DNA of 64,000 bases from a bacterium (GTDB lineage: Bacteria; Patescibacteriota; Minisyncoccia; UBA6257; JAUSGH01), in the NCBI GenBank assembly GCA_030649055.1, contig JAUSGH010000007.1, forward strand, positions 1,854-65,853, given 5' to 3'. This document shows positions 17,345-62,579 of the stretch, in pieces (the stretch's first letter is position 1; every line of letters starts with the position of its first letter). The notes beneath the pieces are model-generated. The model was not told the origin of the DNA, did no database searches, and saw only the letters and a list, made by a program, of their open reading frames with translations. The position numbers and the translations under genes were made by a program.

Positions 17345-17347
17345 ATA

Positions 17348-19745: not shown

Positions 19746-19749
19746 AAAA

Positions 19750-20883: not shown

Positions 20884-20899
20884 AGGGCTAGAACTAAAA

Positions 20900-21907: not shown

Positions 21908-21976
21908 AGGTTCTGAATATAACCGCCAATTGACTAGAATAGTAACCCATCGCGCCTGAAAAAGCAATGCGGCGCG

Positions 21977-30115: not shown

Positions 30116-30133
30116 AATATTTTCTATATGTAG

Positions 30134-30205
30134 CCCTTCGATAAACTCAGGGACTATTATTTCCTGAGCAAAGGTCCGATGAACATCGGACCGCAATCGA
30201 AGGAA
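30134..30205. repeat. Palindromic element, family C (CCCTTCGATAAACTCAGGG ... TCCTGAG-N27-TCGAAGGA)
   Basis: Read directly, between two minus-strand membrane protein genes. Confidence 0.6.
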
Positions 30206-37181: not shown

Positions 37182-37220
37182 AAAAATGCAACAAATATCA
37201 TATAGACAAGAGTTATACAG

Positions 37221-38141
37221 ATGTATATACTATATACATTATCCATGCCTAACGTCAACAAATTGAAGGTCGGAATCATCGGAACCGGCAACATCGGGAG
37301 CGATTTGCTCATGAAAGTCATGCGCTCGCCGTTTTTGACGTGTGGCATGTTCACCGGACGAGATAAAGACTCCGCCGGCATCGCACGCGCGAAAAAACTC
37401 GGCGTGCCAACCTCGCACGAATCCATTAAGGCGATCATTGACGACCCTGCGTGTTGCGACATCGTATGCGACGCGACCTCGGCCGCGGTACACGCCGAGC
37501 ACGCCGCGATATTAAAAAAACTAGGGAAATTCACCATTGACCTTACCCCGTCGCGCATCGGCGTGCCCTGCATTCCCATTTTAAACCTTGACGAAGCGTT
37601 GGAAGCCGATAACGTGAGCTTAATCACGTGCGGAGGACAAAGTGTCATCCCCATCGCGCGAGCGATCATGGAGGTCCACCCCGAGACCGAATACATTGAG
37701 CTCGTCGGAAGCATCGCGTCCAAATCCGCGGGTCCGGGAACACGCGCGAACATTGAGGAATACATCCGGACGACCCGCAGCGCGCTCGAAAAGTTTTCCG
37801 GCGTGCCGCGCGGCAAAGTCATTCTTATCTTGAACCCCGTGGAACCGCCAATTCATATGCACAATACGGTGTACGCGCAGATTCCGCATCCGGACATTCC
37901 CGCATTGCGTAAAAAAATTATGGCCGTCGTGAAACGCATCCAAGCATATGTGCCCGGTTATCGTTTGTCGGTAGGACCTATCGCGCGGCAAGACAGAGTC
38001 ACCGTTGTGACGGAAGTTGTTGGTGCCGAAGATTTTTTGCCGGCGTACGCGGGCAATCTTGATATCATCACCTGCGCGGCCGTCAAAGTCGCCGAAGCGT
38101 ACGCCGAAAAGCACGTGGCTGGGCGACGCAAAAAGCGGTAA
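37221..38141 (+). CDS. Acetaldehyde dehydrogenase (acetylating), DmpF/MhpF family
   Basis: 306 aa. LKVGIIGTGNIGSDL start, catalytic Cys in ITCGGQS, overall colinear with DmpF. True start may be the Met at 37245 (MPNVNKLKV). Confidence 0.8.
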   Translation: MYILYTLSMPNVNKLKVGIIGTGNIGSDLLMKVMRSPFLTCGMFTGRDKDSAGIARAKKLGVPTSHESIKAIIDDPACCDIVCDATSAAVHAEHAAILKKLGKFTIDLTPSRIGVPCIPILNLDEALEADNVSLITCGGQSVIPIARAIMEVHPETEYIELVGSIASKSAGPGTRANIEEYIRTTRSALEKFSGVPRGKVILILNPVEPPIHMHNTVYAQIPHPDIPALRKKIMAVVKRIQAYVPGYRLSVGPIARQDRVTVVTEVVGAEDFLPAYAGNLDIITCAAVKVAEAYAEKHVAGRRKKR

Positions 38142-38158
38142 CTTCAAACACTGACGCC

Positions 38159-39193
38159 ATGAACGACATCAAAATTTTTGATTCAACCCTGCGCGACGGC
38201 TCGCACGCCATCGCGCACACCCTAACACCGGAAAACGTCGCTCGGTACTGCCGGGCGATTGACGGCTCCGGCGTGCACGTGGTCATCGTCGGGCACGGGA
38301 ACGGTCTTGGCGCCTCATCACTTCAAGTGGGACTTTCTTCCGCGTCAGACGAGGCACTGCTCAAAGCCGCGCGCAAAGAATTAAAACACACAAAGCTGGG
38401 TGTCCTTATTTTCCCGGGCTTTGGCACCATCGAAGACGACCTGAAACCGGCGCTCGCGCTCGGCACGGACGTCATACTTGTCGCGGCGCACTGCACCGAG
38501 GCAGACCTCACCGCGCAATACATTTCTTACGCGAAGACGCAAAAAAAAGAGGTGTACGGAATGCTGATGATGTATCACATGACGACCAAAGAGCGCTTGC
38601 TTACGGAAGCTAAAAAAATGGAAGGGTATGGCGCGCAAGGGCTGCTGTTAATGGACTCCGCCGGCGCCTCAACTCCCGCGCTGGTCAAAGAAACCGTTTC
38701 CCATCTCGTAGGAAACCTCTCTATTCCCGTGGGGTTCCACGCGCACAATAATTTGGGGATGGCGGTCGCGCACACATGGATCGCTCTCGAAGCCGGGGCG
38801 CGTATCGTTGACGGCACCGTCAAGGGTTTTGGCGCGGGCGCGGGCAATTGCGCGCTTGAAGTCTTAACCGCGCTGCTGCAGAAAATGGGTTATAAAACGC
38901 CGACGAATCTCTATAAACTCATGGACGCGGGCGATGAACTGGAGCGCTCCATTATGAAAAAACCGCAGGAGATCAGCTCCATCAGCATCGCAAGCGCTCT
39001 CGCCGGTGTATTTTCCGGCTTTGCGCGGCCAGTGAAACGCGCGGCGGAGATCTATGGCGTTGATCCGCGCGACATCTTTAAGATATTGGGCGAGCGCCGC
39101 ATTATCGTCGGGCAGGAAGACATGGTGTTTGAAATCGCCATGGAGCTGGCTAAACTGAAGAAGGGCAAAAGCAATAAAGCAATAAAGCAATAA
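38159..39193 (+). CDS. 4-hydroxy-2-oxovalerate aldolase family (DmpG/MhpE-like, HMGL-like TIM barrel)
   Basis: 344 aa. IFDSTLRDGSHA motif, HAHNNLGMAVA metal site, C-terminal DmpG communication domain. Confidence 0.8.
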   Translation: MNDIKIFDSTLRDGSHAIAHTLTPENVARYCRAIDGSGVHVVIVGHGNGLGASSLQVGLSSASDEALLKAARKELKHTKLGVLIFPGFGTIEDDLKPALALGTDVILVAAHCTEADLTAQYISYAKTQKKEVYGMLMMYHMTTKERLLTEAKKMEGYGAQGLLLMDSAGASTPALVKETVSHLVGNLSIPVGFHAHNNLGMAVAHTWIALEAGARIVDGTVKGFGAGAGNCALEVLTALLQKMGYKTPTNLYKLMDAGDELERSIMKKPQEISSISIASALAGVFSGFARPVKRAAEIYGVDPRDIFKILGERRIIVGQEDMVFEIAMELAKLKKGKSNKAIKQ

Positions 39194-39202
39194 AACGCTA
39201 CC

Positions 39203-41038
39203 ATGAATGTTGCCGATTTTCTCTTAAAATATTTCAGCGACCGCGGCGTCACGCACGCGTTCCTCTTGCCCGGCGGGCATGCCATGTTTTTAAATGATGC
39301 GCTCGCAAAAAATAAACAACTGAGCTACACCTGCCTGCTTCATGAACAAGGCGTCGCAATGGCGGCAGAGGCCTACGGACGCGCATGCGGAAAACCCGCA
39401 ATCGCGATGGTAACCGCCGGCCCCGGAGCGACAAACGCCATCACGGGGGTTGTTGGCGCGTGGGTGGACTCTTCCCCTATGATCATCATCACAGGCCAGT
39501 CCGATCTGAATATTGTGCGACGCGCCGAAAAAACAGGCATACGCCAGCTTGGCGCGCAAGGCATTAGTATCCGCGCCATGGTCACGCCAATCACCAAATA
39601 TTTTGTAACAGTGGACAGTCCCGCAAAGGCCGGCGCATATGCCGCGAAAGCGTGGGAAGCGCTCCACGTCGGACGTCCCGGCCCGGTGTGGCTTGAGGTG
39701 CCGCTGGACATCCAGCGCTCCGAAGTTCCGCCGGCGGTCGTTCGCGCGGCAGAACACATCACCGCGCCACGCGACGTGCATCGCGTGACACCAACGCTCG
39801 CCAAATATGCAGCTGAGGTGTACAAAAAAATCACGGAGGCAAAGCGACCGCTTTTCATCTTCGGCCAAGGCGTGCGCCTTTCAGGCGGCGTTTCGGAATT
39901 TGAATCGGTAATCAAAAAAATAAAAATTCCTCTTATCACCTCCCGCCTGGGGCTGGATATTATCCCAAGCGACCATCCCGCCTTCATCGGCCGCCCGGGC
40001 ACATATGGCGACCGCGCCGCAAATTTAGCCGTACAAAACGCTGACCTTATTGTGGCCGTCGGCTCGCGCCTTGCGACTTCAATGACGGGATACAACGTAA
40101 AGGATTTTGGCAGGAACGCGGGCATTATTCTTGTGGACATTGACGAAAAGGAATTAAAAAAACCCGATCTCCGCCTCGTTATGCCAATCAAAGCCGACGC
40201 GAAAGCGTTTCTTGCGGCACTCGCAAACGAAGCAGGCGCGAAGGGCGACATTGAGCGCGCATCTTGGCTCGCCATCGCCAAGGGTTGGAGAAAAAAATAC
40301 CCTGTGGTGCTTCCGGAATATAAAACACAAAATCCGGTAAACACATATTACTTCGTGGATCGGCTCTCCGCGCTGGCGCCCGAAGGAGCGCAAATTCTTA
40401 CGGACACCAGTTCAATCTTCCACGTAAGCGCGCAAGCGTGGAAGATTAAAAAGGGTCAACGCTATATCACGACCGGCGGCATTTCCACTATGGGCTACTG
40501 GGTGGCGAGCGTGGGCATGTGCATTGCGAACAACAGGAAACCCACGATCGTACTTGTCGGTGACGGCAGTTTGGAAATGAACATCTACGGATTCGCAACC
40601 GTAAAAGGAAGCAACCTTCCGATTAAGATATTTGTCTTAAATAACAACGGCTACCTGCTCATCCGCCACACGCAAAAAAACTTTTTTGAAGGACGCATGA
40701 TCGGCGAAAGCCCTGCCTCGGGCGTCACGCTCCCCGATGTGCGAAAAGTCGCCGAAGCGTATGGCCTAAAAACCATGCGCATCAACTCAGCGAGCGAGGT
40801 AGATCAAAAAATCAAAGAAATGCTCGCCTACGACGGCCCCGTGGTGTGTGAAGTCATGACCCCCGAGTGGCAATTTATTATGCCGAGAGTCGGCGGGATG
40901 AAACAAGCGGACGGAAAAGTTGTGCCGAACAGGTACGAGAACATGTCTCCCCCGCTTCCGCCGGAGGAATTAAAAGCGAATATGATCGCGGAGTCGGGGC
41001 GATCGTCATTGCGAGCAAAGCGAAGCAATCTTACATAA
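39203..41038 (+). CDS. Thiamine-diphosphate-dependent enzyme of the acetolactate-synthase large-subunit family (YerE-like sugar-branching enzyme candidate)
   Basis: 611 aa. Three-domain AHAS-like layout; ThDP-binding GDGS...NN motif (LVGDGSLEMNIYG...NNNGY). Confidence 0.85.
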   Translation: MNVADFLLKYFSDRGVTHAFLLPGGHAMFLNDALAKNKQLSYTCLLHEQGVAMAAEAYGRACGKPAIAMVTAGPGATNAITGVVGAWVDSSPMIIITGQSDLNIVRRAEKTGIRQLGAQGISIRAMVTPITKYFVTVDSPAKAGAYAAKAWEALHVGRPGPVWLEVPLDIQRSEVPPAVVRAAEHITAPRDVHRVTPTLAKYAAEVYKKITEAKRPLFIFGQGVRLSGGVSEFESVIKKIKIPLITSRLGLDIIPSDHPAFIGRPGTYGDRAANLAVQNADLIVAVGSRLATSMTGYNVKDFGRNAGIILVDIDEKELKKPDLRLVMPIKADAKAFLAALANEAGAKGDIERASWLAIAKGWRKKYPVVLPEYKTQNPVNTYYFVDRLSALAPEGAQILTDTSSIFHVSAQAWKIKKGQRYITTGGISTMGYWVASVGMCIANNRKPTIVLVGDGSLEMNIYGFATVKGSNLPIKIFVLNNNGYLLIRHTQKNFFEGRMIGESPASGVTLPDVRKVAEAYGLKTMRINSASEVDQKIKEMLAYDGPVVCEVMTPEWQFIMPRVGGMKQADGKVVPNRYENMSPPLPPEELKANMIAESGRSSLRAKRSNLT

Positions 41039-41045
41039 ACTATTT

Positions 41046-41924
41046 ATGAAAATTTTTCTTACCGGCGGCGCCGGATTCATCGGAAAAAACATCATTGAAC
41101 AGCTCGGCAAAGTGCACGAGATTATTGCGCCCACGCGCGAGGAGCTTGACCTCACGAACTCCGAGGCGGTATTCACGTTCCTCAAGAAACATCCGGTGGA
41201 TGTCGTGATTCATGCCGCAAACATCGGCGGTACGCGCAAGCAACAGCACGTCTTCGGCATCACGCACACGAACCTCAAAATGTTTTTCAATATTATCCGC
41301 GCGAAACCATTTTTCAAACGCATGATCACGCTCGGATCCGGCGCGGAATACGGCAAGCAACACCCCATCATGAACGTGAACGAAAACAATTTCAGCACCC
41401 ACGTTCCCGACGACGAGTACGGCCTCTATAAATACGTTTGCGCGGAGTACGCGTCAAAGGTGGACTACATCACGCACGTGCGACTCTTCGGAGTGTTCGG
41501 AAAATACGAGGATATCCAAATCCGCTTTATTTCCAACGCCATCTGCAAGGCGCTTTCGGGCATGCCCATCACCATTCGCCAGAACGTCGTGTTTGATTAC
41601 ATTTTCGTTGACGACCTCGTGCGGATACTGGACGCGTTTGTCCGCCGCAAACCGAAAGAAATATTTTTCAACACCGGCCGCGGTGAAGGCGTAGATCTTC
41701 GGACCATCGCGAAAAAAGTCATTCACGAAGTCGGCACGAAAGTACCCGTGCTCGTGCAGACGCCGGGACGCGCGAAGGAATACACCTGTTCAACCGCGCG
41801 CCTCAAAAAAACGTTGACGCACTTCTCATACACGCCGCTCGATATCGCCATCGCGAAACTTGTCGCGTACTACCAAACTATCCTCCCCACGATTGACCGC
41901 GAACTACTCACGCGCGACATTTAA
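41046..41924 (+). CDS. NAD(P)-dependent sugar epimerase/reductase (SDR; RmlD/YerF-like ketoreductase candidate)
   Basis: 292 aa. IFLTGGAGFIGKN Rossmann motif, YGLYK catalytic motif. Confidence 0.75.
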   Translation: MKIFLTGGAGFIGKNIIEQLGKVHEIIAPTREELDLTNSEAVFTFLKKHPVDVVIHAANIGGTRKQQHVFGITHTNLKMFFNIIRAKPFFKRMITLGSGAEYGKQHPIMNVNENNFSTHVPDDEYGLYKYVCAEYASKVDYITHVRLFGVFGKYEDIQIRFISNAICKALSGMPITIRQNVVFDYIFVDDLVRILDAFVRRKPKEIFFNTGRGEGVDLRTIAKKVIHEVGTKVPVLVQTPGRAKEYTCSTARLKKTLTHFSYTPLDIAIAKLVAYYQTILPTIDRELLTRDI

Positions 41925-43381
41925 CTTTCGTCAGAACACGCACGAGCGCTATCGCGCCGATACATAAAGATTTTCCCGACGTCGCCCTGAAATGCGTAGC
42001 ATGGTGGGATTCTTTCTATTTCAGGTCCGGAATTCCTCGGGACAAAAATTGTTGAAAAAACACCCCGCAGGAGCTTTGCCTCATTTTCTTGCCCCACAAT
42101 AAACCGGTCGCTCATGCGGATGTATTGGTAAAACGCGCTTGACTGGTGCCGCGCGGCAATCTGCGGCAAATTGTAGAAAAACACGTTATTGTCGCTGCGT
42201 AACGCTTCAAGGTGTGACCCTATCGTTACCGGCAACACGTCCCGGACACGGCTCCCCTCCTTCCAAAGCGGAACAAGCTGCGCTCCAATAAATACGGCGA
42301 TGAGCGCCGCAAAAAACTTAAGACGCAACCCGTCACGTTTCAGCGCAACGCCAAGCATCGCATCAATGCCGGGCGCGAGGAAAAGAAAAAGCATGATGTG
42401 CGCGGGATAAAAATAACGATACCATCCTTCGGTGCGCACATAGAACGCGAGCGTCAGGAGCGCGAAAAGAAATGCCGCGATTTCCGCCATCGACACTCCT
42501 CTCTGCTGCCATATTTTTTTAACAAGAAACGCGAATGCGACGAGGAACAATACAAGCAAATGTGCAGGTGTTGATTCAGTAAAAAAACGCGCTATATTCG
42601 CCGCAATAAGCGGAACAAAATCCGCGACGTAATACGGATTCGCGTAATGCCCGAAAATTCGCGCGAGGGAGGACGCCCCGCCAAACTGCGTGAATATCCA
42701 CCACAAAATGGCCCCAACGCATCCTAACGCAAGCCAGAGCGTTTGCCGCCGGCCCTCGGGCGTAAGTACCATACGGCGCGCATTAAAAAGCAGTGCAAGA
42801 AATAACGCGGGTAGTATAACGAGAAACGTCGGCTTCGCGCTTGCCGCGAACCCCAACACAACACCGGAGGCGGCAAAAAGTACCGACGATGCCTTTGCGG
42901 ATTGCTCGGCGTACAGAAGTAACAGCAAGCCAGCCACTAAAAAGAACAGCGCGGGCGTTTCCCCGGCAAAGCTTTTTCCGTTGCCATAGAGCGGCGTAAA
43001 AGTTGTAAGCAATGCCGTTCCAACGCATGCGATCCGATTCCCGTAGAGTTTCCGCGACAGAAAGAAGAAAGCCACGACAAGTCCAAGCGCGAAAAGCACC
43101 GCGACAATGTGAAACACCGTAACGGAAAATCCGAAGATCAAGATTGCCGCGACCGCGGGGTAAATCGTCGGGTACCCCATCGTGATAAGCGCCGCGTTAT
43201 AAAACGTGCCGGGAGCGATTTCTATACCCCAAACACCCTGCTCCGCAATGTTCCGGACAAGCTGGACAAAAATCCCTTCGTCAAACCAAAATTCAGGATT
43301 CCACACGGAAAAATACAAAAACGCCGCAGCGGTGAATCCGAATAACAATGCCGCAACAAGGATGTATCGTCGATTTATCAT
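41921..43381 (-). CDS. GT-C membrane glycosyltransferase, family 39/83-like, paralog 3
   Basis: Polytopic ArnT/PMT-like pattern (FDEGIF...G.........YP). Start set at MINRRYIL; the first two codons of the longer ORF derive from element 43395-43479. Confidence 0.65.
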   Translation of the reverse strand: MINRRYILVAALLFGFTAAAFLYFSVWNPEFWFDEGIFVQLVRNIAEQGVWGIEIAPGTFYNAALITMGYPTIYPAVAAILIFGFSVTVFHIVAVLFALGLVVAFFFLSRKLYGNRIACVGTALLTTFTPLYGNGKSFAGETPALFFLVAGLLLLLYAEQSAKASSVLFAASGVVLGFAASAKPTFLVILPALFLALLFNARRMVLTPEGRRQTLWLALGCVGAILWWIFTQFGGASSLARIFGHYANPYYVADFVPLIAANIARFFTESTPAHLLVLFLVAFAFLVKKIWQQRGVSMAEIAAFLFALLTLAFYVRTEGWYRYFYPAHIMLFLFLAPGIDAMLGVALKRDGLRLKFFAALIAVFIGAQLVPLWKEGSRVRDVLPVTIGSHLEALRSDNNVFFYNLPQIAARHQSSAFYQYIRMSDRFIVGQENEAKLLRGVFSTIFVPRNSGPEIERIPPCYAFQGDVGKIFMYRRDSARACSDES

Positions 43382-43394
43382 AGTGAGGCACTTT

Positions 43395-43479
43395 GTCATT
43401 CCGGACTCGATCCGGAATCCAGTTTGCCAAGTCCTGGATTCCCGCTGGAGTTTACCCGCCTTTGGCGGGCGGGAATGAC
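43395..43479. repeat. Family A palindromic element, ORF-less copy (GTCATTCCGGACTCGATCCGGAATCCAG ... CTGGATTCCCGCTGGAGTTTACCCGCCTTTGGCGGGCGGGAATGAC)
   Basis: Read directly. Confidence 0.65.
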
Positions 43480-43482
43480 ACG

Positions 43483-44607
43483 CTAAAAACTTTCCATAAA
43501 TTTAATAATCTGCAGCGCGCGGTTTTCCCAGCTATATTCCCGAACATGGTTCTGCGCGGCAAGCGCAATCTGGTGCGCCGCATGCTCATTGTGAAGTACG
43601 GCAGCAATTCCACCGGCAAGCGCCAAAGAGTCATCGGGGTGGACAAAAATTGCCTGCGACTCATTAAGCACCTCGCGAATCGACGGGAGATCAGAGGCGA
43701 CAATCGGCGTACCGGAGGCCATATATTCAAAAAGCTTCATCGGAGAAGTATAGCGCGCGCCGATGGCTGTTTTGCCACTGGTGGGAAGCACGAGTACGTC
43801 CGCCGCCTTGAGCCACAACGGAATCTCGGAGGAACTCCGCCATCCCAGCACGTGCAGGTTTGCCGAAGGGAACCGCCGATTAAATGCCTCCGTGTCAGCC
43901 AGTGTTCCGCCGACAACATACACATGTGTATCGGGTGGAAGTTCTGCCGCCGCGCGAGCTAAGACATCGGCTCCTTTCCAATCATACAAATGGCCGGTAT
44001 ACGCGACAATTTTTTTATCAGCCGGGAGATGCAGTTTCGCGCGACATTCATCGCGACTCGCCGTAATATAAAATTTCTTCATATCAACCGCGTCGCGCGC
44101 GAGTAAAATCTTTTGCTCCGGAACGCCAAAGGCGATAAGCGCCTTTCGCAACCCGTCGCTAATCACAACAATTCCTTTTGCGCGCCGCCAGGCGCGACGG
44201 TGCAGCCAGTTCTCACGCTCCGGCAACGAATGGATTTCGTAAAAAACCGGCACACGCGTCAACAATCCCGCCGCGACGGCAAGGTCGCGCGTATAATACG
44301 CGTCATATGTATTGAAAAGCAGATGCCACCACAAGGCCTTTATAAAACTCATGCTCTCTAATACAAATCCGAGTTGTTTCAAAAAAGGCAACGCTAAAAA
44401 ATCCGCAACAAAAATCTTACGGATTGAAAAGTTGCGCGGGACACCGTAGAAAACAAAAGGGTCGTCTTTGAGCATATTCAGGCGCCGCGGAACCACAAGC
44501 GTCACAGCATTTCCTGCAGCCGCAAACGCCGCACACATATGCACCACCTGGATGCCGTGCGCCTTTTCGGTCGGAAGGCGGATATTTGCAAGATAAGCGA
44601 TTTTCAT
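43483..44607 (-). CDS. GT4 family glycosyltransferase
   Basis: GT4 C-terminal motif (VGG....E.......LKAADVLVLPT...E.......EYMASGTPIVASD). Start set at MKIAYLANI, giving an ATGA-type 4-nt overlap with asnB. Confidence 0.8.
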   Translation of the reverse strand: MKIAYLANIRLPTEKAHGIQVVHMCAAFAAAGNAVTLVVPRRLNMLKDDPFVFYGVPRNFSIRKIFVADFLALPFLKQLGFVLESMSFIKALWWHLLFNTYDAYYTRDLAVAAGLLTRVPVFYEIHSLPERENWLHRRAWRRAKGIVVISDGLRKALIAFGVPEQKILLARDAVDMKKFYITASRDECRAKLHLPADKKIVAYTGHLYDWKGADVLARAAAELPPDTHVYVVGGTLADTEAFNRRFPSANLHVLGWRSSSEIPLWLKAADVLVLPTSGKTAIGARYTSPMKLFEYMASGTPIVASDLPSIREVLNESQAIFVHPDDSLALAGGIAAVLHNEHAAHQIALAAQNHVREYSWENRALQIIKFMESF

Positions 44608-46463
44608 GATGTTGGTTGCCGGCGGATAAATTGTTCGTACCATAACTCCCACATAACAATCGCCCAAATCATATTAAGATTATACCGCTCTCCCGTAACA
44701 TGCGCCTCAAACATCCGCCGGACTTCTTCACGATTGAAAAACTCTTGCGGAATGTTCGCGAGGATATCTCGAACCCTATCTTTCAGCTCGCCGCGCATCC
44801 ACTTTGCCATAGGCGTAAACCAGCCGCGCTTCGGCTCACGCGCCACATGCGGCGGCAGATAGTCCGCGATCGCATCGCGCCAAATGCGCTTGCCCTGGAA
44901 ATGCCTTCCGGTATTCCCTAAAAGCGAAAACTTCCATCGCGTGGGAATCTTCGCGGCAAGCTCCGCGAGCCGATAATCCAGCATAGGTACTCGACACTCA
45001 AGTCCATGACCCATCGTCATTTTATCCGACCGCATCAGCGACTCGTCCACCAGCCAGCTCTGCCGATCAATGTTCATGAATACTTTCTCAAAATCGCGCG
45101 GTTGCGCCGATGCAAAATACCGCTCGCTAAAATGCCTCGTGATTGTCTCGGGGTCGCTGACGTCACGCGAAAGCACGCCGACTACATTATTCTCTTTTTC
45201 CGCGAGGAACGCGACCACGCGCGACGCATCCGCCGGAAGTCGCAGCTTTTGCGCGTTGTTTTTCCCGAAACAACCCGCAAGCGCGGAGTGGAACGGCAGC
45301 CGCTGGAACGCGGTAATCGCGCGGCTGTACCAATACCGCGGATAACCGCCGAAGAGCTCGTCTCCCCCGTCGCCGCCCAAAACCACCGCCACGTTTTCCT
45401 TCGCCATTTTTGACAACAGATACATCGCGCCCGCGGTCGGGTTAAAATTTGGCTCATCCAGGTGCCACGCGATACGTTCCAAATTATCACCGATATCTTT
45501 TGCCCCGATCATAAGCTCGTGATGCTCTGCTCCGTAGTGCGCCGCGGTCATCCGCGCGAGGCGAACATCAGCATTAAATTTATCCCGCTGCACATCAACG
45601 TCAAACCCCACGGAAAATGTCTGCGCTTTGCCCGCGGCGGCAACAACCGAGCCCAACACCGCTGTGGAATCCATGCCTCCCGAAAGAAACACACCGACGG
45701 GTCTGTCGGAAATAAGCTGACGCTTTACAGAGTCGTCAAACAACCGCCGGATCTCACGCCGTGCTTCATCACGCGAGACAACATCCGTAAAATCCGTCAC
45801 CTCCCAATACTTTTCGATCGTCAGCTTTCCGTTTGTGAATACGGCGCGGCTCGCCGCGGGAAGCTTGAAAATATTTTGAAACATCGTAAGCGGCTCCGGC
45901 ACATAGTAAAGATGAAAATAAAAATTCATCGCCTCCTTGGAAACCGCCCGAGCGATATCATGCGCAAGAATCGCCTTAATCTCCGATGAAAAAATAAATC
46001 GCGCCTGCCCTGAGCTCGTCGAAGGGTCAAAGTAGTAGTACAGCGGCTTCACGCCCGCGTGATCGCGCGCGAGAAACAGTTCTTGCTTCGCCGCGTCCCA
46101 AATGGCAAACGCAAAAATGCCGTTGAACTTTTTGACGCACTCTTTCCCCCACTTCGCGTACGCCACCAAAATTACCTCGGTGTCGCTCGCCGTGCGGAAC
46201 GGATAACCGGACTTTAACTCTTCTTTCAACTCACGGTAATTGTAAATCTCACCGTTAAAAACAATAACCAGCCGCCCATCCGCGCTTTTCATCGGCTGGC
46301 TGGCGGCAGAACTCAAATCAATAATGCTCAAGCGGTCGTGGCCGAGCGAAATTCCATCTGCAACAAAAACATCGGTCCCATCGGGTCCCCGATGAACTGT
46401 GGCGGCGTTCATGCTCTTAATGAGCGCCTCGTCTTTGAAATTAAATCCATTGATGCTACACAC
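44604..46463 (-). CDS. asnB: Asparagine synthase (glutamine-hydrolysing) family amidotransferase (AsnB/WbpS-like)
   Basis: 619 aa. N-terminal MCSINGF Ntn-Cys start, PP-loop SGGMDS. Confidence 0.85.
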   Translation of the reverse strand: MCSINGFNFKDEALIKSMNAATVHRGPDGTDVFVADGISLGHDRLSIIDLSSAASQPMKSADGRLVIVFNGEIYNYRELKEELKSGYPFRTASDTEVILVAYAKWGKECVKKFNGIFAFAIWDAAKQELFLARDHAGVKPLYYYFDPSTSSGQARFIFSSEIKAILAHDIARAVSKEAMNFYFHLYYVPEPLTMFQNIFKLPAASRAVFTNGKLTIEKYWEVTDFTDVVSRDEARREIRRLFDDSVKRQLISDRPVGVFLSGGMDSTAVLGSVVAAAGKAQTFSVGFDVDVQRDKFNADVRLARMTAAHYGAEHHELMIGAKDIGDNLERIAWHLDEPNFNPTAGAMYLLSKMAKENVAVVLGGDGGDELFGGYPRYWYSRAITAFQRLPFHSALAGCFGKNNAQKLRLPADASRVVAFLAEKENNVVGVLSRDVSDPETITRHFSERYFASAQPRDFEKVFMNIDRQSWLVDESLMRSDKMTMGHGLECRVPMLDYRLAELAAKIPTRWKFSLLGNTGRHFQGKRIWRDAIADYLPPHVAREPKRGWFTPMAKWMRGELKDRVRDILANIPQEFFNREEVRRMFEAHVTGERYNLNMIWAIVMWELWYEQFIRRQPTS

Positions 46464-46465
46464 GG

Positions 46466-46500
46466 CAATATTTGCTTAATTGCTTAATTGTTTTATTGCT
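46466..46500. repeat. Short tandem octamer repeat (GCAATWAA-like units; reverse complement reads GCAATAAAACAATTAAGCAATTAAGCAA) at a gene junction
   Basis: Read directly. Similar octamer runs at 39169-39192 (GCAATAAA x3) and 50636-50672. They encode ...AIKQ termini. Confidence 0.5.
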
Positions 46501-48122
46501 TTAACGACCATCGTTGGTCCATTCGACCGAAGCGCGAACATTTTCAATAGTCCACCGCCGAAACCGTTCGTGATGTCATCGGAGTTATCCGCAGAGCCCG
46601 AAAATATTCCAACAGTTTCGCCTAAGCTCGCGAGATGGTCGGAAATGCCATACCCTGCAACAAATTCCGGACTATACAGAAGATACGCGTAATCATTCGC
46701 CTGCATATATTCGGAGAGATGGTCGGTGAATGGGCCGGGCTGCGCGGCGAAAAGATTCAGCGCGTGGTAGCGCGGCGAGGGCAGCAGCTCCTCCGGCAAC
46801 GCTTCAGTCGCCACGTCCGCGCTCCGAAGCGAGCCGGGGTCAAGGCGTCGCTGTTCTTGAACCGCATCGGCGGTCGTGGGAATCCGCATCAGGCGCGCGA
46901 ATGTAACCACTTTTTCTCCGGCTGGAACATTTGCCGCAGTCCACTCTGCCGCCTGCACGCGCGTATCATTTTTGAGAAGCAGCGAGTCAAACCGCAGCAC
47001 TCCCGCCGCCATCGTTCCAAACACAACGACACCAAGGCCATACGCAAGAAACCTTGAACGCGCCGCAATCCACATAGTTGCTTCGTGCATCCCGTACCCC
47101 GCGACAAGCGCGAACAGCGGATAAAGCATCAGGATGTACCGGTCCATGTGAAAGAAGAACAAGTAGAAGACGGCGATATAGGCGAAAGAAAAGAGCGACG
47201 CAACCGCAAAAAACCTGCGCTTGCGGAGGAATGCGTAAAGCAACCCCGCAATAATAAACACGAAAAACGCCGACTCCGTTTCAATGAGCTTTTTTGCATA
47301 AAATCCGTATCCCGCGAAAAATCCAATAATGCTCTTTGCTCCCCCAACAACATTCTCCGCGTGCACCACAAGTCCCCCGGGATAAAGCGCGTAAGCCAGT
47401 GCCACAAGTGCCGTAAAAAGCAGCGCGCTCCCGTAAACCCACCGCTCCCTCAAAGACAGCCGGTCATACAACAAAAACCACAGCGCGATAAACAACGCCG
47501 AAAGTCCGGCCTGGTAGTTGATACCGACACCTATGCCGGCAAAAAGCGTGGCGAGGAGGTAGCGCCGCCGCGCCGCAATATCAGCGCGGGAAAGCACGTA
47601 CATGACGAGCGCAAAGAAAAACGTTGCCGGAACCCAATGTCGCGCCCAATGCGAAAAATTTGCATGGAGAAAACTTAATGCCAAAAATGCGGCCGAATAT
47701 AGCGCGGGCGCTTCCGCCGCAAAAACATTCTTCCCGATTTTATAAACAAGCCAAACCGTCGCGGTGCCGAGGACGACACTCGCGAGACGCGCGGCAATAA
47801 AAAGCGCCGAGGGGTCAAGCGTTGTTGCGGAAATAAACTGCGGGAACGTCCCGGAAAACAGCAAATATTTTATCACGAGCACGGGAATAAAAAGTACAAG
47901 GTAGATGTAGGAAAGATATGGCGGAAAATAGAGAATGCGCCCGAACTCCGCGGCATGAAGCGCCGGCACTAGGCTACGGAGCTCCATCATCTTTAGCGCT
48001 CCAAAAATAAACGGCGGCTCGTCCGAGACAAGCCACATCGGCAAACCGTAAGAAATCCCCGCAAGACGCACGAAAAACGCAACCGCGATAATCAAAAGTA
48101 ACGCGATTTTGAAGCGAGACAT
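46476..48122 (-). CDS. GT-C membrane glycosyltransferase, family 39/83-like, paralog 4
   Basis: 548 aa polytopic. N-terminal SYGLPMWLVSDEPPF and ArnT/PMT-like helices. Confidence 0.65.
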   Translation of the reverse strand: MSRFKIALLLIIAVAFFVRLAGISYGLPMWLVSDEPPFIFGALKMMELRSLVPALHAAEFGRILYFPPYLSYIYLVLFIPVLVIKYLLFSGTFPQFISATTLDPSALFIAARLASVVLGTATVWLVYKIGKNVFAAEAPALYSAAFLALSFLHANFSHWARHWVPATFFFALVMYVLSRADIAARRRYLLATLFAGIGVGINYQAGLSALFIALWFLLYDRLSLRERWVYGSALLFTALVALAYALYPGGLVVHAENVVGGAKSIIGFFAGYGFYAKKLIETESAFFVFIIAGLLYAFLRKRRFFAVASLFSFAYIAVFYLFFFHMDRYILMLYPLFALVAGYGMHEATMWIAARSRFLAYGLGVVVFGTMAAGVLRFDSLLLKNDTRVQAAEWTAANVPAGEKVVTFARLMRIPTTADAVQEQRRLDPGSLRSADVATEALPEELLPSPRYHALNLFAAQPGPFTDHLSEYMQANDYAYLLYSPEFVAGYGISDHLASLGETVGIFSGSADNSDDITNGFGGGLLKMFALRSNGPTMVVKAIKQLSN

Positions 48123-48141
48123 ATGATAACTATAACATCCC

Positions 48142-49419
48142 CTATCTCACCTTTCCCGGCTTTTTGGAGTCCAAAAACTTCTTGAACGTGGCCTTCACGT
48201 AGCTGAGCATCTTTGGCGTGATGCATTGGTGCGCGCCGATGACAAACGAGTCGCGCATGATCTTATCCGCGTTCGCGAGTGTCCCGACAATGCGCCGCGG
48301 CGTGTCTTTGTATCCCGGCTGGCGCAAGATGTTTCCCGCGAACAAAAGACGTGTCTGGATATTTGCCGCCTCAAGATAACTCACCAGCTCAAGACGCGTA
48401 AACGGAACATTGTCCTTGAGCGTCAGCGGAAACGCGAGCCATGCCACCTTCGCCTTCGGATGCTCTTTCGGCAAAATAAAGTAGTCCTCGTACCCGCTGA
48501 AAAAGTTGTAGAGCCCGTCAAACACCGCGCGACGCATACCGATAAACTTATTCAGTTTCTTGAGCTGCACCAACCCGAACGCGAACATCATCTCCACGGG
48601 CTTTAAGTTGTGGCCCATGTGCGTGTAGGTGAACTTGCGGTCATAAGATATACCGGTCAACTCCGTCGTGAAACGCTCGCTGATATCCTCGTTATTATCC
48701 AGCGCCGCTCTTCCCCATTCGCGGAACGCATACGCAGTCCGCCAAAACTCCGGTTTTGACATGCAAAGAATTCCGCCGCCTCCGCCCGCGGTCGTGATGT
48801 GCGAGGCGTAAAAACTGGAGGTCGTCATGTCGCTATAGGCGCCGGTCGGCTTTCCGTTGAATGTCCCGCCAATGGTGTCACAGCTGTCCTCAACAAGATA
48901 CAGGTTATGTTTTTTACAGAACGCGCTCAGCACTTCCATATCATTCAAATTGCCGAGCGTGTGCGGAATCATCACCGCGCGCGTCTTGGGCGAAAGCATC
49001 TTCTCCAAATTTTTGAGGTCAAGATTGTAACTACCAATCTCTGAGTCCCCGACCACCGGCATGCATCCGGCGAGCAATATCGCGCTATAGGTTGTGGGGA
49101 AAGTACAGGCCGGAGTAATCACCTCGCTTCCTTCAGGCAAGCCCAGCACTTTAAACGCAAGATAATCCGCCGAAGAACCGGAATTGACCACCAATCCGTG
49201 CGTGTGCCCAAAAATGCCCGAAACTTTTTGTTCAAACTCCGCGACATATTTTCCCATCCCCAGCCACCCTTCTTCTAAGCACTTCACAACGGCGTTAATC
49301 TCCTCTTTGCCGTACGACGCCTGCGCGTAATACACCTTGTCCTTTCCGGGTTGAAAAGTTTTTTTCATATTAAAAATGCCGTAATACTGCTTCGCCGCGG
49401 ATTTTTTAGAGGGTTTCAT
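48142..49419 (-). CDS. DegT-family PLP/PMP-dependent sugar 3-dehydrase-like enzyme (E1/DdhC/RfbH-type)
   Basis: 425 aa. VNSGSSADYLAF, TFPTT, MIPHTLGN, EDSCDTIGG match the CDP/TDP-4-keto-6-deoxyglucose-3-dehydrase (E1) pattern. The site of the usual Schiff-base Lys lies in the E1-type region. Confidence 0.7.
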   Translation of the reverse strand: MKPSKKSAAKQYYGIFNMKKTFQPGKDKVYYAQASYGKEEINAVVKCLEEGWLGMGKYVAEFEQKVSGIFGHTHGLVVNSGSSADYLAFKVLGLPEGSEVITPACTFPTTYSAILLAGCMPVVGDSEIGSYNLDLKNLEKMLSPKTRAVMIPHTLGNLNDMEVLSAFCKKHNLYLVEDSCDTIGGTFNGKPTGAYSDMTTSSFYASHITTAGGGGGILCMSKPEFWRTAYAFREWGRAALDNNEDISERFTTELTGISYDRKFTYTHMGHNLKPVEMMFAFGLVQLKKLNKFIGMRRAVFDGLYNFFSGYEDYFILPKEHPKAKVAWLAFPLTLKDNVPFTRLELVSYLEAANIQTRLLFAGNILRQPGYKDTPRRIVGTLANADKIMRDSFVIGAHQCITPKMLSYVKATFKKFLDSKKPGKVR

Positions 49420-49706
49420 ATTGTTGAATTATAGAATAACAATATAACAAAAGACAAGGCGGACGGGTCACACGTCGCCACCATCAATAAGGATAAGTCA
49501 CCGTACTCATTTTTTGCAGCATATTGGAGCGATGCGTGAAATTCCCGAGTAAAGAAATCACGAAGTCGGAACAATGGCGCTGTATGAATCCCGAAGTCCG
49601 CCTAAGGCGGGCGGAGGTTGAGTTCGCCTTGTTCCGTCACCTTCGCGATTTTTTACGAGGAGAATTTCCGCAAGCGGAAATCGTTGCAAAAAATGGGCGC
49701 GGTGAC

Positions 49707-50639
49707 CTATCCGGACAACTTCTTGTATGCCTCGATAACCCGCGACAATCCCGTTTTATAATCTATCTTCGCCTTCCATCCCAACGCATTGATTTTGGAA
49801 GTGTCGGCGATAAAGTTACCAACGCCCACCGCGCGGTGAAACGCCGGCGGTTCCATTTGCACAAGCTTAGAACGCCGTCCGGTATACTCCAACACATAGT
49901 CCATCATTGTCCTAAACTTCACCGGCGAACCATATCCGATCAAAAACGTGTCGTTCTTGGCATGTGACTCCAGAAATCGCAGGGCGTCAATAACATCATT
50001 CACATAAATATAGTCGCGGTAAAAACTTCCGTCGCCATACATGGTCACCTCCTCGCCCTTCACCGCGCTCATAATAAGAAAACTCAAGGCGCCCTTCTTC
50101 TTTTGCGTAAAATCCTCCCCTTCGGCATACACATTCGTGAGACGCGTAATGAGGTACGGGATGTCGTACAGCCGCGCGTAGAGCTTGATAATGCTTTCGG
50201 CGCAAAGTTTTGTCGCGGGGTAGAGCGCCCGCGGGTCCGTCGCGCTTTCTTCGTTCACGGGTTTGCCCCCGCTTTTATCGCACGTGTTACCGTACACAAA
50301 AAACGTGGAGGGATAGATGACGAGCGGTTTTTTTGCCATATCCTTCACCAGCTCCAGCAGCCGAATGGTCCCTTTGAGGTTGGTGTCAACGTCAATATAC
50401 GGGTTATCAAGCACATGATAATTGTGCACCGTGCTCGCGCAGTGATAGATGACGTCCGCACTGTCTATGTCCGCGGCTTCAAGCGCGTTGAGGTCTTTCA
50501 ACACAATCCGCGCATCTTTTCGCGTCAGCCGATCTTTAGGGGCGCCGGCGCGGTCAATCACGGTCACATCCCCCTCCACGCTATTTGCAAGCAATGAGCC
50601 GATAAGCCCGAGCCCTCCGGTTATAACGTATTGCTTCAT
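49707..50639 (-). CDS. NAD-dependent epimerase/dehydratase (SDR)
   Basis: Rossmann motif YVITGGLGLIGSLL, YPATK catalytic motif. Start set at MKQYVITGG; the 13 upstream codons overlap the octamer repeat. Confidence 0.75.
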   Translation of the reverse strand: MKQYVITGGLGLIGSLLANSVEGDVTVIDRAGAPKDRLTRKDARIVLKDLNALEAADIDSADVIYHCASTVHNYHVLDNPYIDVDTNLKGTIRLLELVKDMAKKPLVIYPSTFFVYGNTCDKSGGKPVNEESATDPRALYPATKLCAESIIKLYARLYDIPYLITRLTNVYAEGEDFTQKKKGALSFLIMSAVKGEEVTMYGDGSFYRDYIYVNDVIDALRFLESHAKNDTFLIGYGSPVKFRTMMDYVLEYTGRRSKLVQMEPPAFHRAVGVGNFIADTSKINALGWKAKIDYKTGLSRVIEAYKKLSG

Positions 50640-50643
50640 TGCT

Positions 50644-51420
50644 CTATTGCTTAATTGCTTTATTGCCTTCCATTTCAAATATCGGAAACTTTTTTATGCC
50701 AAGCTTGTACAAAATATACTTCACCACCACGCGGAGCGAGTTTAATCCGTATTTCACGCTGCTTTTAAAATTCACCGATGACGCTTCCTTAAAGTACCGC
50801 GTGGGGATCGCCACCTCCGCAACGCGGAATTTGCCGATCCGCAACTGCGGAAATACCTCGGCGTCAAACATAAAGCCGTCGGAATTGTCGTTAAACGGAA
50901 TTGTCTCCAAAACTTTTCTGCTATACGCGCGGTACCCGGTGTGATATTCGGAGAGACCCAGCCGGAACACCGAATTCTCAACAAGCGAAAGGACGATATT
51001 GGGAATAAATTTCCAGATCGGCATTCCCCCTTTTAGGGCATTGCGCTTCACCGCCATACGCGAACCGAACGTCGCGTCCGCCCGGCCTTCGACAATCGGC
51101 CGAACCATTTCCGGAATAAGCGACGGGTCATACTGATAATCCGCGTGGAGCATCACCACAATATCGGCGCCATCCTTCAACGCCTCGTTGTAACACGTCT
51201 TTTGGTTTGCGCCGTACCCGCGATTCACCTCATGTACGATGGTCTTGATACCCAGCGATCGGGAAATCTCCGCGGTGCGGTCACCCCCACCATCGTCGCA
51301 CAAAATCACCTCATCCACCCAATCAAGAGGAATGGCGCGGTACGTTTTTTCAACGGTTTTCTCGGCGCGGTACGCGATCATACATACCACGACTTTTTTG
51401 CCATTTGCGAGGCGGGTCAT
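50644..51420 (-). CDS. GT2 polyprenyl-phosphate sugar synthase-like glycosyltransferase
   Basis: 258 aa. VVCMIAYRAE, ILCDDGGGD, MLHADYQYDP DXD region. Confidence 0.8.
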   Translation of the reverse strand: MTRLANGKKVVVCMIAYRAEKTVEKTYRAIPLDWVDEVILCDDGGGDRTAEISRSLGIKTIVHEVNRGYGANQKTCYNEALKDGADIVVMLHADYQYDPSLIPEMVRPIVEGRADATFGSRMAVKRNALKGGMPIWKFIPNIVLSLVENSVFRLGLSEYHTGYRAYSRKVLETIPFNDNSDGFMFDAEVFPQLRIGKFRVAEVAIPTRYFKEASSVNFKSSVKYGLNSLRVVVKYILYKLGIKKFPIFEMEGNKAIKQ

Positions 51421-57304: not shown

Positions 57305-57337
57305 CAACAGGACGCATTCTCCCTTTTCTAAAGGGAG
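57260..57337. repeat. Family D element copy with second hairpin (CTCCCTTTTCTAAAGGGAG), spanning the stop of 55928..57304 and the 3' end of 57328..58689
   Basis: Read directly. Confidence 0.65.
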
Positions 57338-58755: not shown

Positions 58756-59496
<741 letters not shown>

Positions 59497-59505
59497 AGTG
59501 GTATT

Positions 59506-59540
59506 GGTCCTATTGGACTTATAAGTCCTATTAATCCTAT
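59506..59540. promoter_or_regulatory. Second copy of the GGTCCTAT / GGACTTATAAGTCC motif, just upstream of the rmlA-like start
   Basis: Perfect 14-bp palindrome GGACTTATAAGTCC at 59515-59528, flanked by GGTCCTAT-type repeats. Same arrangement as 3203-3239. Confidence 0.3.
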
Positions 59541-60550
59541 ACAAGCTTCTTCGCAACCGCCTTCACCCAATCACCATTCTTTATATACCATTCTACGGTT
59601 TTTTGCAAGCCATCTTCAAAATTATGCGCCGGCTTATAGCCCAGTTCGCTCGCGGCCTTGGTGTAGTCAATAGCATAACGGAGATCGTGGCCCAGGCGGT
59701 CATTCACGTACGTGATGAGCGACTCGTCCTTCCCTACATGCCGCAAAATGGTTTTTACCACATCAATATTCGCCCGCTCCGCCCCTCCGCCGATGCAATA
59801 CGTCTCACCGACCCGTCCCTTAGTAATGATCAGCTCAACGCCACGGGAATGATCCTCCACATGCACCCAATCGCGTACATTCACGCCCCTACCATACACC
59901 GGCAAAGGTTTCCCTTGAAGCGCGTAAGTAATCATCAGCGGGATAAGTTTTTCCGGCGTCTGATACGGTCCATAGTTGTTACTGCAATTAGAAATAGTGA
60001 GCGGCAATCCGTAGGTATGCGCGTACGCGCGCGCGAGCATGTCAGATGCCGCCTTGGACGCGGCGTAGGGGCTGCTTGGTTGGTATGGTGATTGTTCATT
60101 AAACTTGCGCGTATCATCCAACGCCAAACTGCCGAACACCTCATCGGTTGAAACATGGTGAAAACGCGCTACCTTTGCCTCAAGCGCCGCCTGAAGCAGC
60201 ACTTGCGTACCCAACACATTCGTCACCACGAAGGGTGCCGCATCCGCAATGGAGCGGTCCACGTGGCTTTCCGCGGCAAAGTGCACCACGGTGTCCGCGC
60301 CTTTCATCGCCTCGCGGACAGTCGCGGGGTCGCAAATATCGCCATGTATAAATGCGTAGTTCGGATGCTTGGCGATCGCCTCAAGATTTTCCAAATGTCC
60401 GGCGTACGTCAGTTTATCAAGATTGACAATCTTGTCCTCGGGGTGGTGCTTCATCCAGTAATGGATGAAGTTGCTCCCGATAAACCCTGCACCACCCGTA
60501 ACAAGTATTTTCTTTTCTTTTTTTGTCGCCATCAACGTGTTCATAAACAC
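59537..60550 (-). CDS. rmlB: dTDP-glucose 4,6-dehydratase
   Basis: 337 aa. ILVTGGAGFIGSNF, HVSTDEVFG, YAASKAASD; colinear with RmlB. Confidence 0.9.
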   Translation of the reverse strand: MFMNTLMATKKEKKILVTGGAGFIGSNFIHYWMKHHPEDKIVNLDKLTYAGHLENLEAIAKHPNYAFIHGDICDPATVREAMKGADTVVHFAAESHVDRSIADAAPFVVTNVLGTQVLLQAALEAKVARFHHVSTDEVFGSLALDDTRKFNEQSPYQPSSPYAASKAASDMLARAYAHTYGLPLTISNCSNNYGPYQTPEKLIPLMITYALQGKPLPVYGRGVNVRDWVHVEDHSRGVELIITKGRVGETYCIGGGAERANIDVVKTILRHVGKDESLITYVNDRLGHDLRYAIDYTKAASELGYKPAHNFEDGLQKTVEWYIKNGDWVKAVAKKLV

Positions 60551-62501: not shown

Positions 62502-62523
62502 CCGTACAAGTACGCGAACGCGC

Positions 62524-62565
62524 GAAGCCCCGAGACCCACAAGGTCTTGGGGCTTCTACATTTTC
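62524..62565. terminator. Hairpin GAAGCCCCGAGACC-CACAA-GGTCTTGGGGCTTC plus T-run between convergent genes
   Basis: Read directly. 14-bp stem with one G-U pair, followed by ACATTTTC. Confidence 0.5.
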
Positions 62566-62579
62566 ACCACCAACCACAA

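Follow-up and report, generated by a model that had tools for sequence, protein, structure and literature searches.

What does a glycan locus make when an aldolase and an aldehyde dehydrogenase named for catabolism sit among its sugar genes? The question is raised by a stretch of 64,000 nucleotides, here called the window (positions 1,854 to 65,853 of contig JAUSGH010000007.1, assembly GCA_030649055.1), from an uncultured, probably ultra-small bacterium that is a likely member of the candidate phyla radiation (CPR, or Patescibacteria). An earlier interpretation made from the letters alone, the sequence-only reading, had proposed a pathway in which a 4-keto-6-deoxy nucleoside diphosphate (NDP) sugar passes through a 3-dehydrase, a YerE-like thiamine diphosphate (ThDP) enzyme, and a ketoreductase, and the gene families agree with a pathway of that class. 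It had also proposed a two-carbon, yersiniose-type branch derived from pyruvate, and that part is probably wrong, as analogy with the published erwiniose cluster points instead to a branch of four carbons. We conclude that the locus probably makes an NDP-activated erwiniose-type sugar, a 3,6-dideoxyhexose that carries at C4 a 1,3-dihydroxybutyl branch of four carbons. This kind of pathway has been known since 2022, and the core finding is not new biology. What differs here is the likely CPR host, which has no lipopolysaccharide (LPS), together with a wide distribution, probable activation by deoxythymidine diphosphate (dTDP), and, in place of the E1/E3 pair, a member of a large cysteine-free clade of E1-like enzymes.

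The aldolase-carboligase cassette

Four genes on the forward strand make up the cassette, tightly packed with gaps of 8 to 18 nucleotides (10 to 18 among the first three), and profile searches found every open reading frame (ORF) of the sequence-only reading at the position and in the family it had been given. The first gene (37221..38141) encodes an acylating acetaldehyde dehydrogenase of the ErwJ/DmpF/BphJ type (TIGR03215, 370.7 bits against a cutoff of 282; PF09290) that matches the solved structures 7z3s (297 bits) and 1nvm_B (246 bits) and has the catalytic cysteine, Cys137, in the motif ITC137GGQ. Its true start is probably the second ATG, at 37245, because the protein aligns to the family model only from residue 12 onward and a promoter-like sequence (TAGACA-17-TATACT) occupies 37203-37231. 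The second gene (38159..39193) encodes a class II pyruvate aldolase, a 4-hydroxy-2-oxovalerate aldolase of the ErwI/DmpG/BphI type (TIGR03217, 356 bits against a cutoff of 286; PF00682 and PF07836), in which the DmpG communication domain is retained. The third gene (39203..41038) encodes the putative branching enzyme, a YerE-like ThDP-dependent carboligase (PF02776, PF00205, and PF02775). Finally, the fourth gene (41046..41924), which starts 8 nucleotides 3' of the ThDP gene, encodes an extended short-chain dehydrogenase/reductase (SDR; PF01370, 92.7 bits) in the position of YerF and ErwF, with the Rossmann motif GGAGFIG and the pair Y125xxxK129. Comparison to the PDB gave no close solved structure for this NAD(P)H reductase, and we predict that it reduces the 1'-ketone of the new side chain.

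The product of the third gene was also compared with ordinary acetohydroxyacid synthases (AHAS, or acetolactate synthases). The protein scored 354 bits on the AHAS model TIGR00118, for which the cutoff is 538, and failed every other AHAS model. Its best match of known structure was JanthE (8rph; 395 bits, 35% identity), whereas E. coli AHAS gave 241 bits, about the same as PpYerE (5ahk, 242 bits). Glu48 and a canonical ThDP motif (G453-D-G ... N480NN) are present. A tblastn search of plasmids with the ThDP enzyme returned true ilvB genes only, at 28 to 31% identity, and serves as a negative control. Moreover, a Pfam scan of the window ORFs found no AHAS small subunit (ACT domain), ilvC, or ilvD. 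Thus, acetolactate synthase was rejected on grounds of scores below the AHAS cutoffs, identity of about 30% to IlvB, and the lack of ilv context, and the sequence-only reading was right to call the enzyme YerE-like. The nearest database homologues (51 to 91% identity) are unnamed metagenomic proteins, and those with names come from Lachnospiraceae and from CPR/Patescibacteria (Harrisonbacteria at 76%, also Falkowbacteria and Magasanikbacteria). JanthE, from Janthinobacterium sp. HH01 (PDB 8rph, 8rpi, and 8rpj), is likewise a YerE-like carboligase and the closest solved structure to the window enzyme. It acts on ketone acceptors, and its donors include 4-hydroxy-2-oxovalerate and also pyruvate. 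The ThDP motif of JanthE has an unusual CDG, however, where the window enzyme has the canonical GDG.

How an aldolase and a dehydrogenase might serve a branching enzyme is illustrated by the plant pathogen Pectobacterium atrosepticum SCRI1043, in which the ThDP enzyme ErwE and the reductase ErwF adjoin a BphI-like aldolase, ErwI, and a BphJ-like dehydrogenase, ErwJ (Steitz et al. 2022, PMC9306805). ErwJ and ErwI convert acetyl-CoA and pyruvate to 4-hydroxy-2-oxopentanoate, and ErwE joins that acid to a ketone model of CDP-4-keto-3,6-dideoxyglucose, preferring the 4R form and rejecting pyruvate (PMC9306805). Reduction of the side chain by ErwF completes erwiniose, a C4-branched sugar (PMC9306805). 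In both the erwiniose cluster and the window, the same four enzyme types are adjacent, the reductase of the window being matched by family and position, and are accompanied by genes for an NDP-4-keto-3,6-dideoxyhexose, which in the window are putative and do not include E3. The likeness is drawn by enzyme type and not by sequence. Because the four types are the same, the predicted branch has four carbons and not the two of yersiniose. The sequence-only reading had suggested that the pair could supply pyruvate and acetaldehyde or an acyl-CoA, which is probably wrong, as the erwiniose analogy would have it make 4-hydroxy-2-oxopentanoate, the donor for the ThDP enzyme. The two systems differ in that the erwiniose host is Gram negative with LPS, the window host being a likely CPR bacterium without it, and in that erwiniose is activated by cytidine diphosphate (CDP), the window sugar probably by dTDP from RmlA and RmlB. 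Moreover, the window has a 3-dehydrase without an iron-sulfur (Fe-S) site, no E3, and membrane glycosyltransferases of the GT-C fold (PMT_2) as neighbors.

Other branched sugars offer a more partial likeness. The pathway to yersiniose A in Yersinia pseudotuberculosis (YerE/YerF with E1/E3) shares with the scheme predicted for the window a ThDP enzyme that adds the equivalent of an acyl anion to a 4-keto-3,6-dideoxy NDP-hexose at C4 and a reductase that acts on the resulting ketone, and both have a His-type 3-dehydrase of the E1 lineage. YerE, however, takes pyruvate as the donor for a two-carbon branch, and no dedicated aldolase or dehydrogenase has been described for it, whereas a DmpG/DmpF pair lies directly upstream of the window enzyme. 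In addition, the yersiniose E1 carries a [2Fe-2S] cluster and needs E3, while the window dehydrase lacks the cluster cysteines. Caryophyllose and gastriose in mycobacteria (MMAR_2332, MyGE) resemble the window in combining an aldolase-made, hydroxylated 2-oxo acid with a ThDP branching enzyme and a reductase, but the aldolase belongs to another family (aldolase/citrate lyase, MMAR_2331), the donors are C6/C7, and there is no pair of the DmpF/DmpG type.

The cassette is not peculiar to this window. When a single genome of each species was scanned with the ThDP enzyme, 80 loci distributed over many phyla were recovered at no less than 48% identity; the best match was 67%, Pectobacterium was not among them, and the counts given here hold for the clade so selected and not for all YerE-like enzymes. 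The DmpF-like, DmpG-like, and ThDP genes were contiguous, and in this order, in 67 of the 67 loci with enough upstream DNA. Thus, an aldolase/dehydrogenase pair, which the sequence-only reading found unusual for a sugar locus, is invariant in the clade and has a published precedent in the erwiniose cluster. Of the 43 loci with 8 kb on both flanks, 40 had an E1-like gene no more than 10 kb away from the cassette, often directly upstream and on the same strand. In Pseudobutyrivibrio sp. JW11, genes for a nucleotidyltransferase (NTP-transferase), an E1-like enzyme, DmpF, DmpG, the ThDP enzyme, an SDR, and a family 2 glycosyltransferase (GT2) follow one another on a single strand. Lachnotalea glycerini DSM 28816 and Clostridium gasigenes DSM 12272 are further cultured organisms that carry the cassette. 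Finally, one contig from a metagenome (L001) keeps the gene order of the window between WecB and the E1-like gene, at 75 to 94% amino acid identity, and the SDR gene lies directly 3' of the ThDP gene there (92% identity) and in six further loci, L003 to L008 (53 to 68%).

The aldolase may be specialized in stereochemistry as well as in context. Alignment to DmpG (1nvm_A) and 8ih7_A indicated that R12, D13, and H16 and the metal ligands H194 and H196 are kept, and that Phe285 occupies the position of DmpG Tyr291 and BphI Tyr290. Phenylalanine was found at this position in all 76 cassette-linked aldolases that were extracted, as well as in that of the window. In BphI, Tyr290 blocks the 4R enantiomer and so enforces 4S, the Y290F change abolishes stereocontrol, L87W/Y290F makes the enzyme 4R specific, and Leu89 gates aldehyde length. 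The BphI Leu87 position is Phe or Tyr in all 76 relatives. Thus, by alignment, the cassette aldolases look like a natural counterpart of the engineered 4R BphI, a resemblance less secure for the window protein, and we note that a 4R-type aldolase would match the 4R preference of ErwE. Residues 82 to 86 of the window protein (VLIFP, 38402-38416) place Leu83 at the BphI Leu87 position and Phe85 at that of BphI Leu89, while in the 76 relatives an aromatic residue, Phe or Tyr, comes first and Ile or Leu next (as in VFLLPG). Within its substrate pocket, the window protein appears to carry the aromatic side chain two positions farther on. A catabolic, meta-cleavage role for the pair was rejected in view of the Tyr-to-Phe change and the lack of catabolic gene context, the Pfam scan of window ORFs having found no hydratase, dioxygenase, or ring-cleavage gene.

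The 3-dehydrase and nucleotide activation

How the 3-hydroxyl would be removed depends on a 425-residue protein of the DegT family, encoded on the reverse strand at 48142..49419, which the sequence-only reading had called an E1-type 3-dehydrase dependent on pyridoxal or pyridoxamine phosphate (PLP or PMP). The best model was that of RfbH/E1 (NF011936, 395.8 bits), just under its cutoff of 423, and the protein matched Yersinia E1 (PDB 3bcx) with 288 bits and 37% identity but ColD with 157 bits. His207 aligns with E1 His220, at the position of the PLP-binding lysine, and the enzyme is therefore of dehydrase type and not a plain aminotransferase. The [2Fe-2S] motif of E1 is C193-X57-C251-X-C253-X7-C261. 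Cys180 of the window protein corresponds to Cys193, but C251, C253, and C261 are missing, as a 21-residue segment of E1 is replaced by a shorter loop, REWGRAALDNNEDISERF. Thus, the E1 lineage and the histidine of the sequence-only reading held, while the Fe-S motif did not, and the combination it had set down as pointing to a plain aminotransferase, a canonical lysine with no Fe-S motif, was found only in its second half.

The missing cysteines are a property of a clade. Among 60 loci with an E1-like gene beside the cassette, the histidine was kept in all and the three cysteines in 54; the remaining six (L001, L014, L023, L043, L077, and the window) come from CPR or unclassified bacterial metagenome-assembled genomes. 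The nearest database homologues of the window dehydrase (50 to 100% identity) kept the histidine and lacked equivalents of C251, C253, and C261 in 120 of 120 cases, and those with names were mainly from Harrison-, Taylor-, Buchanan-, Yanofsky-, and Moranbacteria, Minisyncoccia, and Parcubacteria. In a neighbor-joining tree rooted on ColD, the cysteine-free (26 sequences) and cysteine-containing (55 sequences) E1-like proteins formed monophyletic sister clades, a topology equally compatible with loss and with gain of the cluster. Members of the cysteine-free clade turn up, too, in glycan loci of CPR bacteria with neither the ThDP cassette nor an E3 neighbor. Moreover, the window cassette is nearest (62 to 67%) to the cassettes of L003 to L008, whose E1-like proteins contain the cysteines. 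Cassette and dehydrase, therefore, have had separate histories.

The sequence-only reading had recognized no E3 partner, and we likewise found no Fer2/FNR (E3-like) protein in the window, either by Pfam on nearly all ORFs of at least 150 residues and on those above 100 residues in the region of the cassette and dehydrase, or by regular expression. Absence of the [2Fe-2S] motif explains why no such partner is seen. A regular expression combining Fer2 and RxYS found no E3-like ORF in 82 loci or the window, even beside cysteine-containing E1-like genes. Cysteine-containing enzymes with no E3 within 10 kb may, like SpnQ, rely on ferredoxin or flavodoxin reductases of general function, or the expression may have been too strict.

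Two routes of 3-deoxygenation are distinguished in review: E1 and SpnQ use an Fe-S cluster and a reductase, while ColD has no cluster and proceeds by ene-amine hydrolysis, with PMP regenerated from glutamate. ColD is an Fe-S-free 3-dehydratase of the His type that works without a reductase, whereas E1 cannot complete its cycle unless E3 is present, and SpnQ catalyzes transamination when no reductase is supplied. Like ColD, the window dehydrase has histidine where the PLP lysine would be, lacks an Fe-S cluster (here, the cysteines for it), and has no reductase partner. It is closer to E1 by the scores given above, however; ColD falls outside both E1-like clades, and the context of ColD is GDP-mannose where that of the window enzyme is dTDP-glucose. 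By analogy, we predict a ColD-like, reductase-independent mechanism acting on the dTDP-sugar of RmlA and RmlB. Further, we tentatively suggest, at a little under even chances, that the enzyme belongs to a third lineage of nucleotide-sugar 3-dehydratases, found mainly in CPR/Patescibacteria, which would be a cluster-free sister of E1/RfbH with a ColD-like, hydrolytic and glutamate-recycling chemistry.

The activated precursor is probably accounted for farther along the same strand as the dehydrase. RmlB, the dTDP-glucose 4,6-dehydratase, is encoded at 59537..60550 (reverse strand; TIGR01181, 478.8 bits against a cutoff of 365; PF16363), and a short RmlA-like glucose-1-phosphate nucleotidylyltransferase, probably a thymidylyltransferase, at 58756..59556 (reverse strand; PF00483, 207 bits; TIGR01207, 260 bits against a cutoff of 360). 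The real start of the RmlA-like gene likely lies about 20 codons inside the listed ORF, as the PF00483 match begins at residue 22. This protein scored only 55 bits on a cytidylyltransferase model, and no enzyme of the CDP-glucose pathway was detected in the window by NCBIfam comparison. The branched sugar is thus probably activated by dTDP rather than CDP.

From these parts, of which the gene families, catalytic residues, missing Fe-S cysteines, and synteny were observed directly, we infer the following pathway. The DmpF-like enzyme would reduce acetyl-CoA to acetaldehyde, which would be channeled to the DmpG-like aldolase within a probable channeling complex, since the communication domain is retained. 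The aldolase would condense acetaldehyde with pyruvate to 4-hydroxy-2-oxopentanoate, probably 4R because the tyrosine that enforces 4S in BphI is phenylalanine here. Meanwhile, the RmlA-like enzyme and RmlB would provide dTDP-4-keto-6-deoxyglucose, and the E1-lineage dehydrase, with His207 and no Fe-S site, would remove the 3-hydroxyl by ene-amine hydrolysis, with regeneration of PMP from glutamate and no need of E3. The ThDP enzyme would then decarboxylate the hydroxy-keto acid and add the equivalent of a four-carbon acyl anion to the C4 ketone of the sugar, and the adjacent SDR would reduce the new 1'-ketone of the side chain. Finally, the sugar would probably pass by way of a polyprenyl-phosphate carrier, loaded by a small GT2, to a PMT_2 transferase of the GT-C type and so decorate a surface glycan.

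Neighboring glycan genes

How the sugar might reach a glycan is suggested by the genes around the cassette, all on the reverse strand. Convergent with the cassette is a gene for a PMT_2 (ArnT-like GT-C) membrane glycosyltransferase (41921..43399; PF13231), conserved in position in L001 at 79% identity, and a second PMT_2 GT-C protein (46476..48122; PF13231) is encoded directly downstream of the E1-like gene, an adjacency that recurs in L001 and L083. We infer that these two are candidate extracytoplasmic transferases. A small GT2 (50644..51420; PF00535), whose best NCBIfam models, PpgS, AglJ, and a dolichyl-phosphate hexose transferase, were all far below cutoff, is most like the synthases of polyprenyl-phosphate sugars and, by that faint resemblance, is a weak candidate for the enzyme that would attach the sugar to a lipid carrier. 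Taken with the PMT_2 and GT87 proteins of the window, the resemblance suggests an ArnC/ArnT-like route via a lipid carrier. Six GT-C proteins are encoded in 64 kb, five PMT_2 and one GT87 (25462-26778, 28607-30196, 41921-43399, 46476-48122, 57328-58689, and 55928-57304), and so dense a set is unusual and suggests extensive extracytoplasmic glycosylation from lipid-linked sugars.

Several other genes lie nearby. A family 4 glycosyltransferase (GT4; 43483-44667) and an AsnB-like glutamine amidotransferase (44604-46463), both on the reverse strand and conserved in L001 (86 and 91% identity), are part of the glycan locus but not required for the chemistry of the branched sugar. A GalE-like extended SDR next to the E1-like gene (49707..50678, reverse strand; PF01370; best PDB match UDP-glucose 4-epimerase 4zrm, 92 bits) was rejected as the 4,6-dehydratase of the pathway, being GalE-like and absent from the conservation with L001. 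In L001, a split transketolase-like pair and an SDR lie between GT2 and GT4 (1138-3849 of that contig), and the window does not have them. In L084, too, the E1-like locus is bordered by a Transket_pyr gene, and transketolase-like genes recur in CPR glycan loci.

The rest of the window is rich in sugar genes as well. A citryl-CoA lyase (NF004869, 255 bits against a cutoff of 212), a succinyl-CoA-ligase-like alpha subunit, and an ATP-grasp/Citrate_bind beta subunit (3245-6594, reverse strand) make up a citryl-CoA synthetase/lyase set for ATP-dependent citrate cleavage, situated between an O-antigen-ligase-like Wzy_C/TPR protein and a Wzx flippase. The set may be a dedicated source of acetyl-CoA for the GNAT acetyltransferases of the locus and for the DmpF-like enzyme. 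What looks like a full pathway to pseudaminic acid follows at 9928-21967 (reverse strand), with PseB (442 bits, cutoff 408), PseC (506, cutoff 423), PseI (416, cutoff 340), a CMP-sugar synthetase, and GNATs, and WbuX (390 bits, cutoff 203) with HisH/HisF-like partners in the same interval suggests an acetamidino-modified nonulosonic acid. Between 51424 and 55771 the glycan locus is broken by a Bro-N protein, a ThiF-like adenylyltransferase (53637-54299), and ORFs of 129 and 491 residues without a Pfam match; GC content rises there to 0.55 to 0.57, and the interval is possibly an inserted mobile or defense-like module. Near the end of the window are a NUDIX protein and a methyltransferase (61773-63368) and a GDP-L-fucose synthase fragment (63340-63960, reverse strand; NF047922, 343 bits over model residues 101 to 304) that runs towards the window end. 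The glycan locus thus extends past the window.

Competing explanations and implications

Could the branch have two carbons after all? The ThDP enzyme might add a two-carbon unit from pyruvate and the SDR reduce it to a hydroxyethyl group, as in yersiniose, with the DmpF/DmpG pair supplying or balancing pyruvate, acetaldehyde, or acetyl-CoA. YerE does so with pyruvate, JanthE also accepts pyruvate, and the ThDP and SDR genes stand in a YerE/YerF arrangement. Mere supply is hard to reconcile, however, with a pair that immediately precedes the ThDP gene in all 67 loci that could be judged. Moreover, the replacement of Tyr by Phe throughout the aldolases of the clade speaks for a dedicated biosynthetic product of defined stereochemistry, and ErwE, the only characterized ThDP enzyme with this gene context, rejects pyruvate, such that a two-carbon branch seems unlikely. 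The same four-carbon product could in principle arise in the reverse order, as Steitz et al. raised as a formal alternative (PMC9306805): the ThDP enzyme would install an acetyl branch from pyruvate, and the DmpG-like aldolase would then add acetaldehyde on the sugar. That order is excluded for ErwE by its rejection of pyruvate (PMC9306805), and a DmpG-type site binds the 2-oxo-acid of pyruvate through a conserved metal and Arg/His, so the methyl ketone of an NDP-sugar would be a poor candidate for the nucleophile. We regard it as very improbable. An ordinary metabolic origin, with an acetolactate synthase and a catabolic meta-cleavage pair brought together by chance, finds some encouragement in nomenclature, as the top NCBIfam name of the ThDP enzyme is acetolactate synthase and the DmpF and DmpG models are catabolic equivalogs. 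This alternative is effectively refuted by the AHAS scores and the missing ilv and ring-cleavage genes described above, and by the embedding of the genes in a 64-kb glycan locus whose synteny with sugar genes is kept across many phyla.

A further alternative accepts the branching enzyme but assigns the E1-like dehydrase to another sugar, so that the acceptor would be the 3-hydroxylated dTDP-4-keto-6-deoxyhexose and the product a 6-deoxy branched sugar. The dehydrase gene lies 6 kb from the cassette, on the opposite strand and beside other glycosyltransferases, and its clade occurs also in CPR glycan loci without the cassette. Against this, an E1-like gene is near the cassette in 40 of the 43 fully flanked loci, often directly upstream on the same strand, and every acyl-branched sugar so far known in this class has the 3,6-dideoxy pattern (PMC9306805). 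We think such a division of labor quite unlikely. The erwiniose-type reading, in turn, has points to answer. With the E1-like gene 6 kb and RmlA/RmlB 17 kb from the cassette, on the opposite strand, linkage in the window rests on the other loci, and the genes here run J-I-E-F, which appears to differ from the order of the P. atrosepticum accessions (WP_011093010-13, for E, F, J, and I). The nearest solved relative, JanthE, also uses pyruvate, so that homology gives no ground against a two-carbon branch. The leucine of the window aldolase at the BphI Leu87 position makes its own stereopreference less certain than that of its relatives. As E1 needs E3 and SpnQ deprived of its reductase turns to transamination, an Fe-S-free relative of E1 might also differ from ColD. 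Transfer by lipid carrier and GT-C protein is the weakest step, based as it is on weak family resemblance.

To our knowledge, acyl-branched sugars such as erwiniose, caryophyllose, and yersiniose have been described in no more than a few pathogens, and their chemical detection is difficult. The four-enzyme cassette offers a sequence signature by which erwiniose-type sugars can be predicted. The clade-wide Tyr-to-Phe change marks a set of natural, possibly 4R-selective, pyruvate aldolases that are of biocatalytic interest, as are the ThDP enzymes that would form tertiary alcohols alongside them. With the Fe-S-free relatives of E1, the evolution of C-3 deoxygenation between the ColD and E1/E3 solutions can be tested directly. 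If these relatives are indeed a third dehydratase lineage, 3,6-dideoxy and erwiniose-type sugars would be made without E3 or a ferredoxin reductase in bacteria of reduced redox capacity, and, with the cassette in at least 67 species-level genomes, gut Lachnospiraceae included, long-branched sugars would be far commoner than the few known structures from LPS and lipooligosaccharide. Ultimately, the spread of the cassette across uncultured and gut lineages, among them CPR bacteria without LPS, suggests that erwiniose-type sugars may be common surface decorations.

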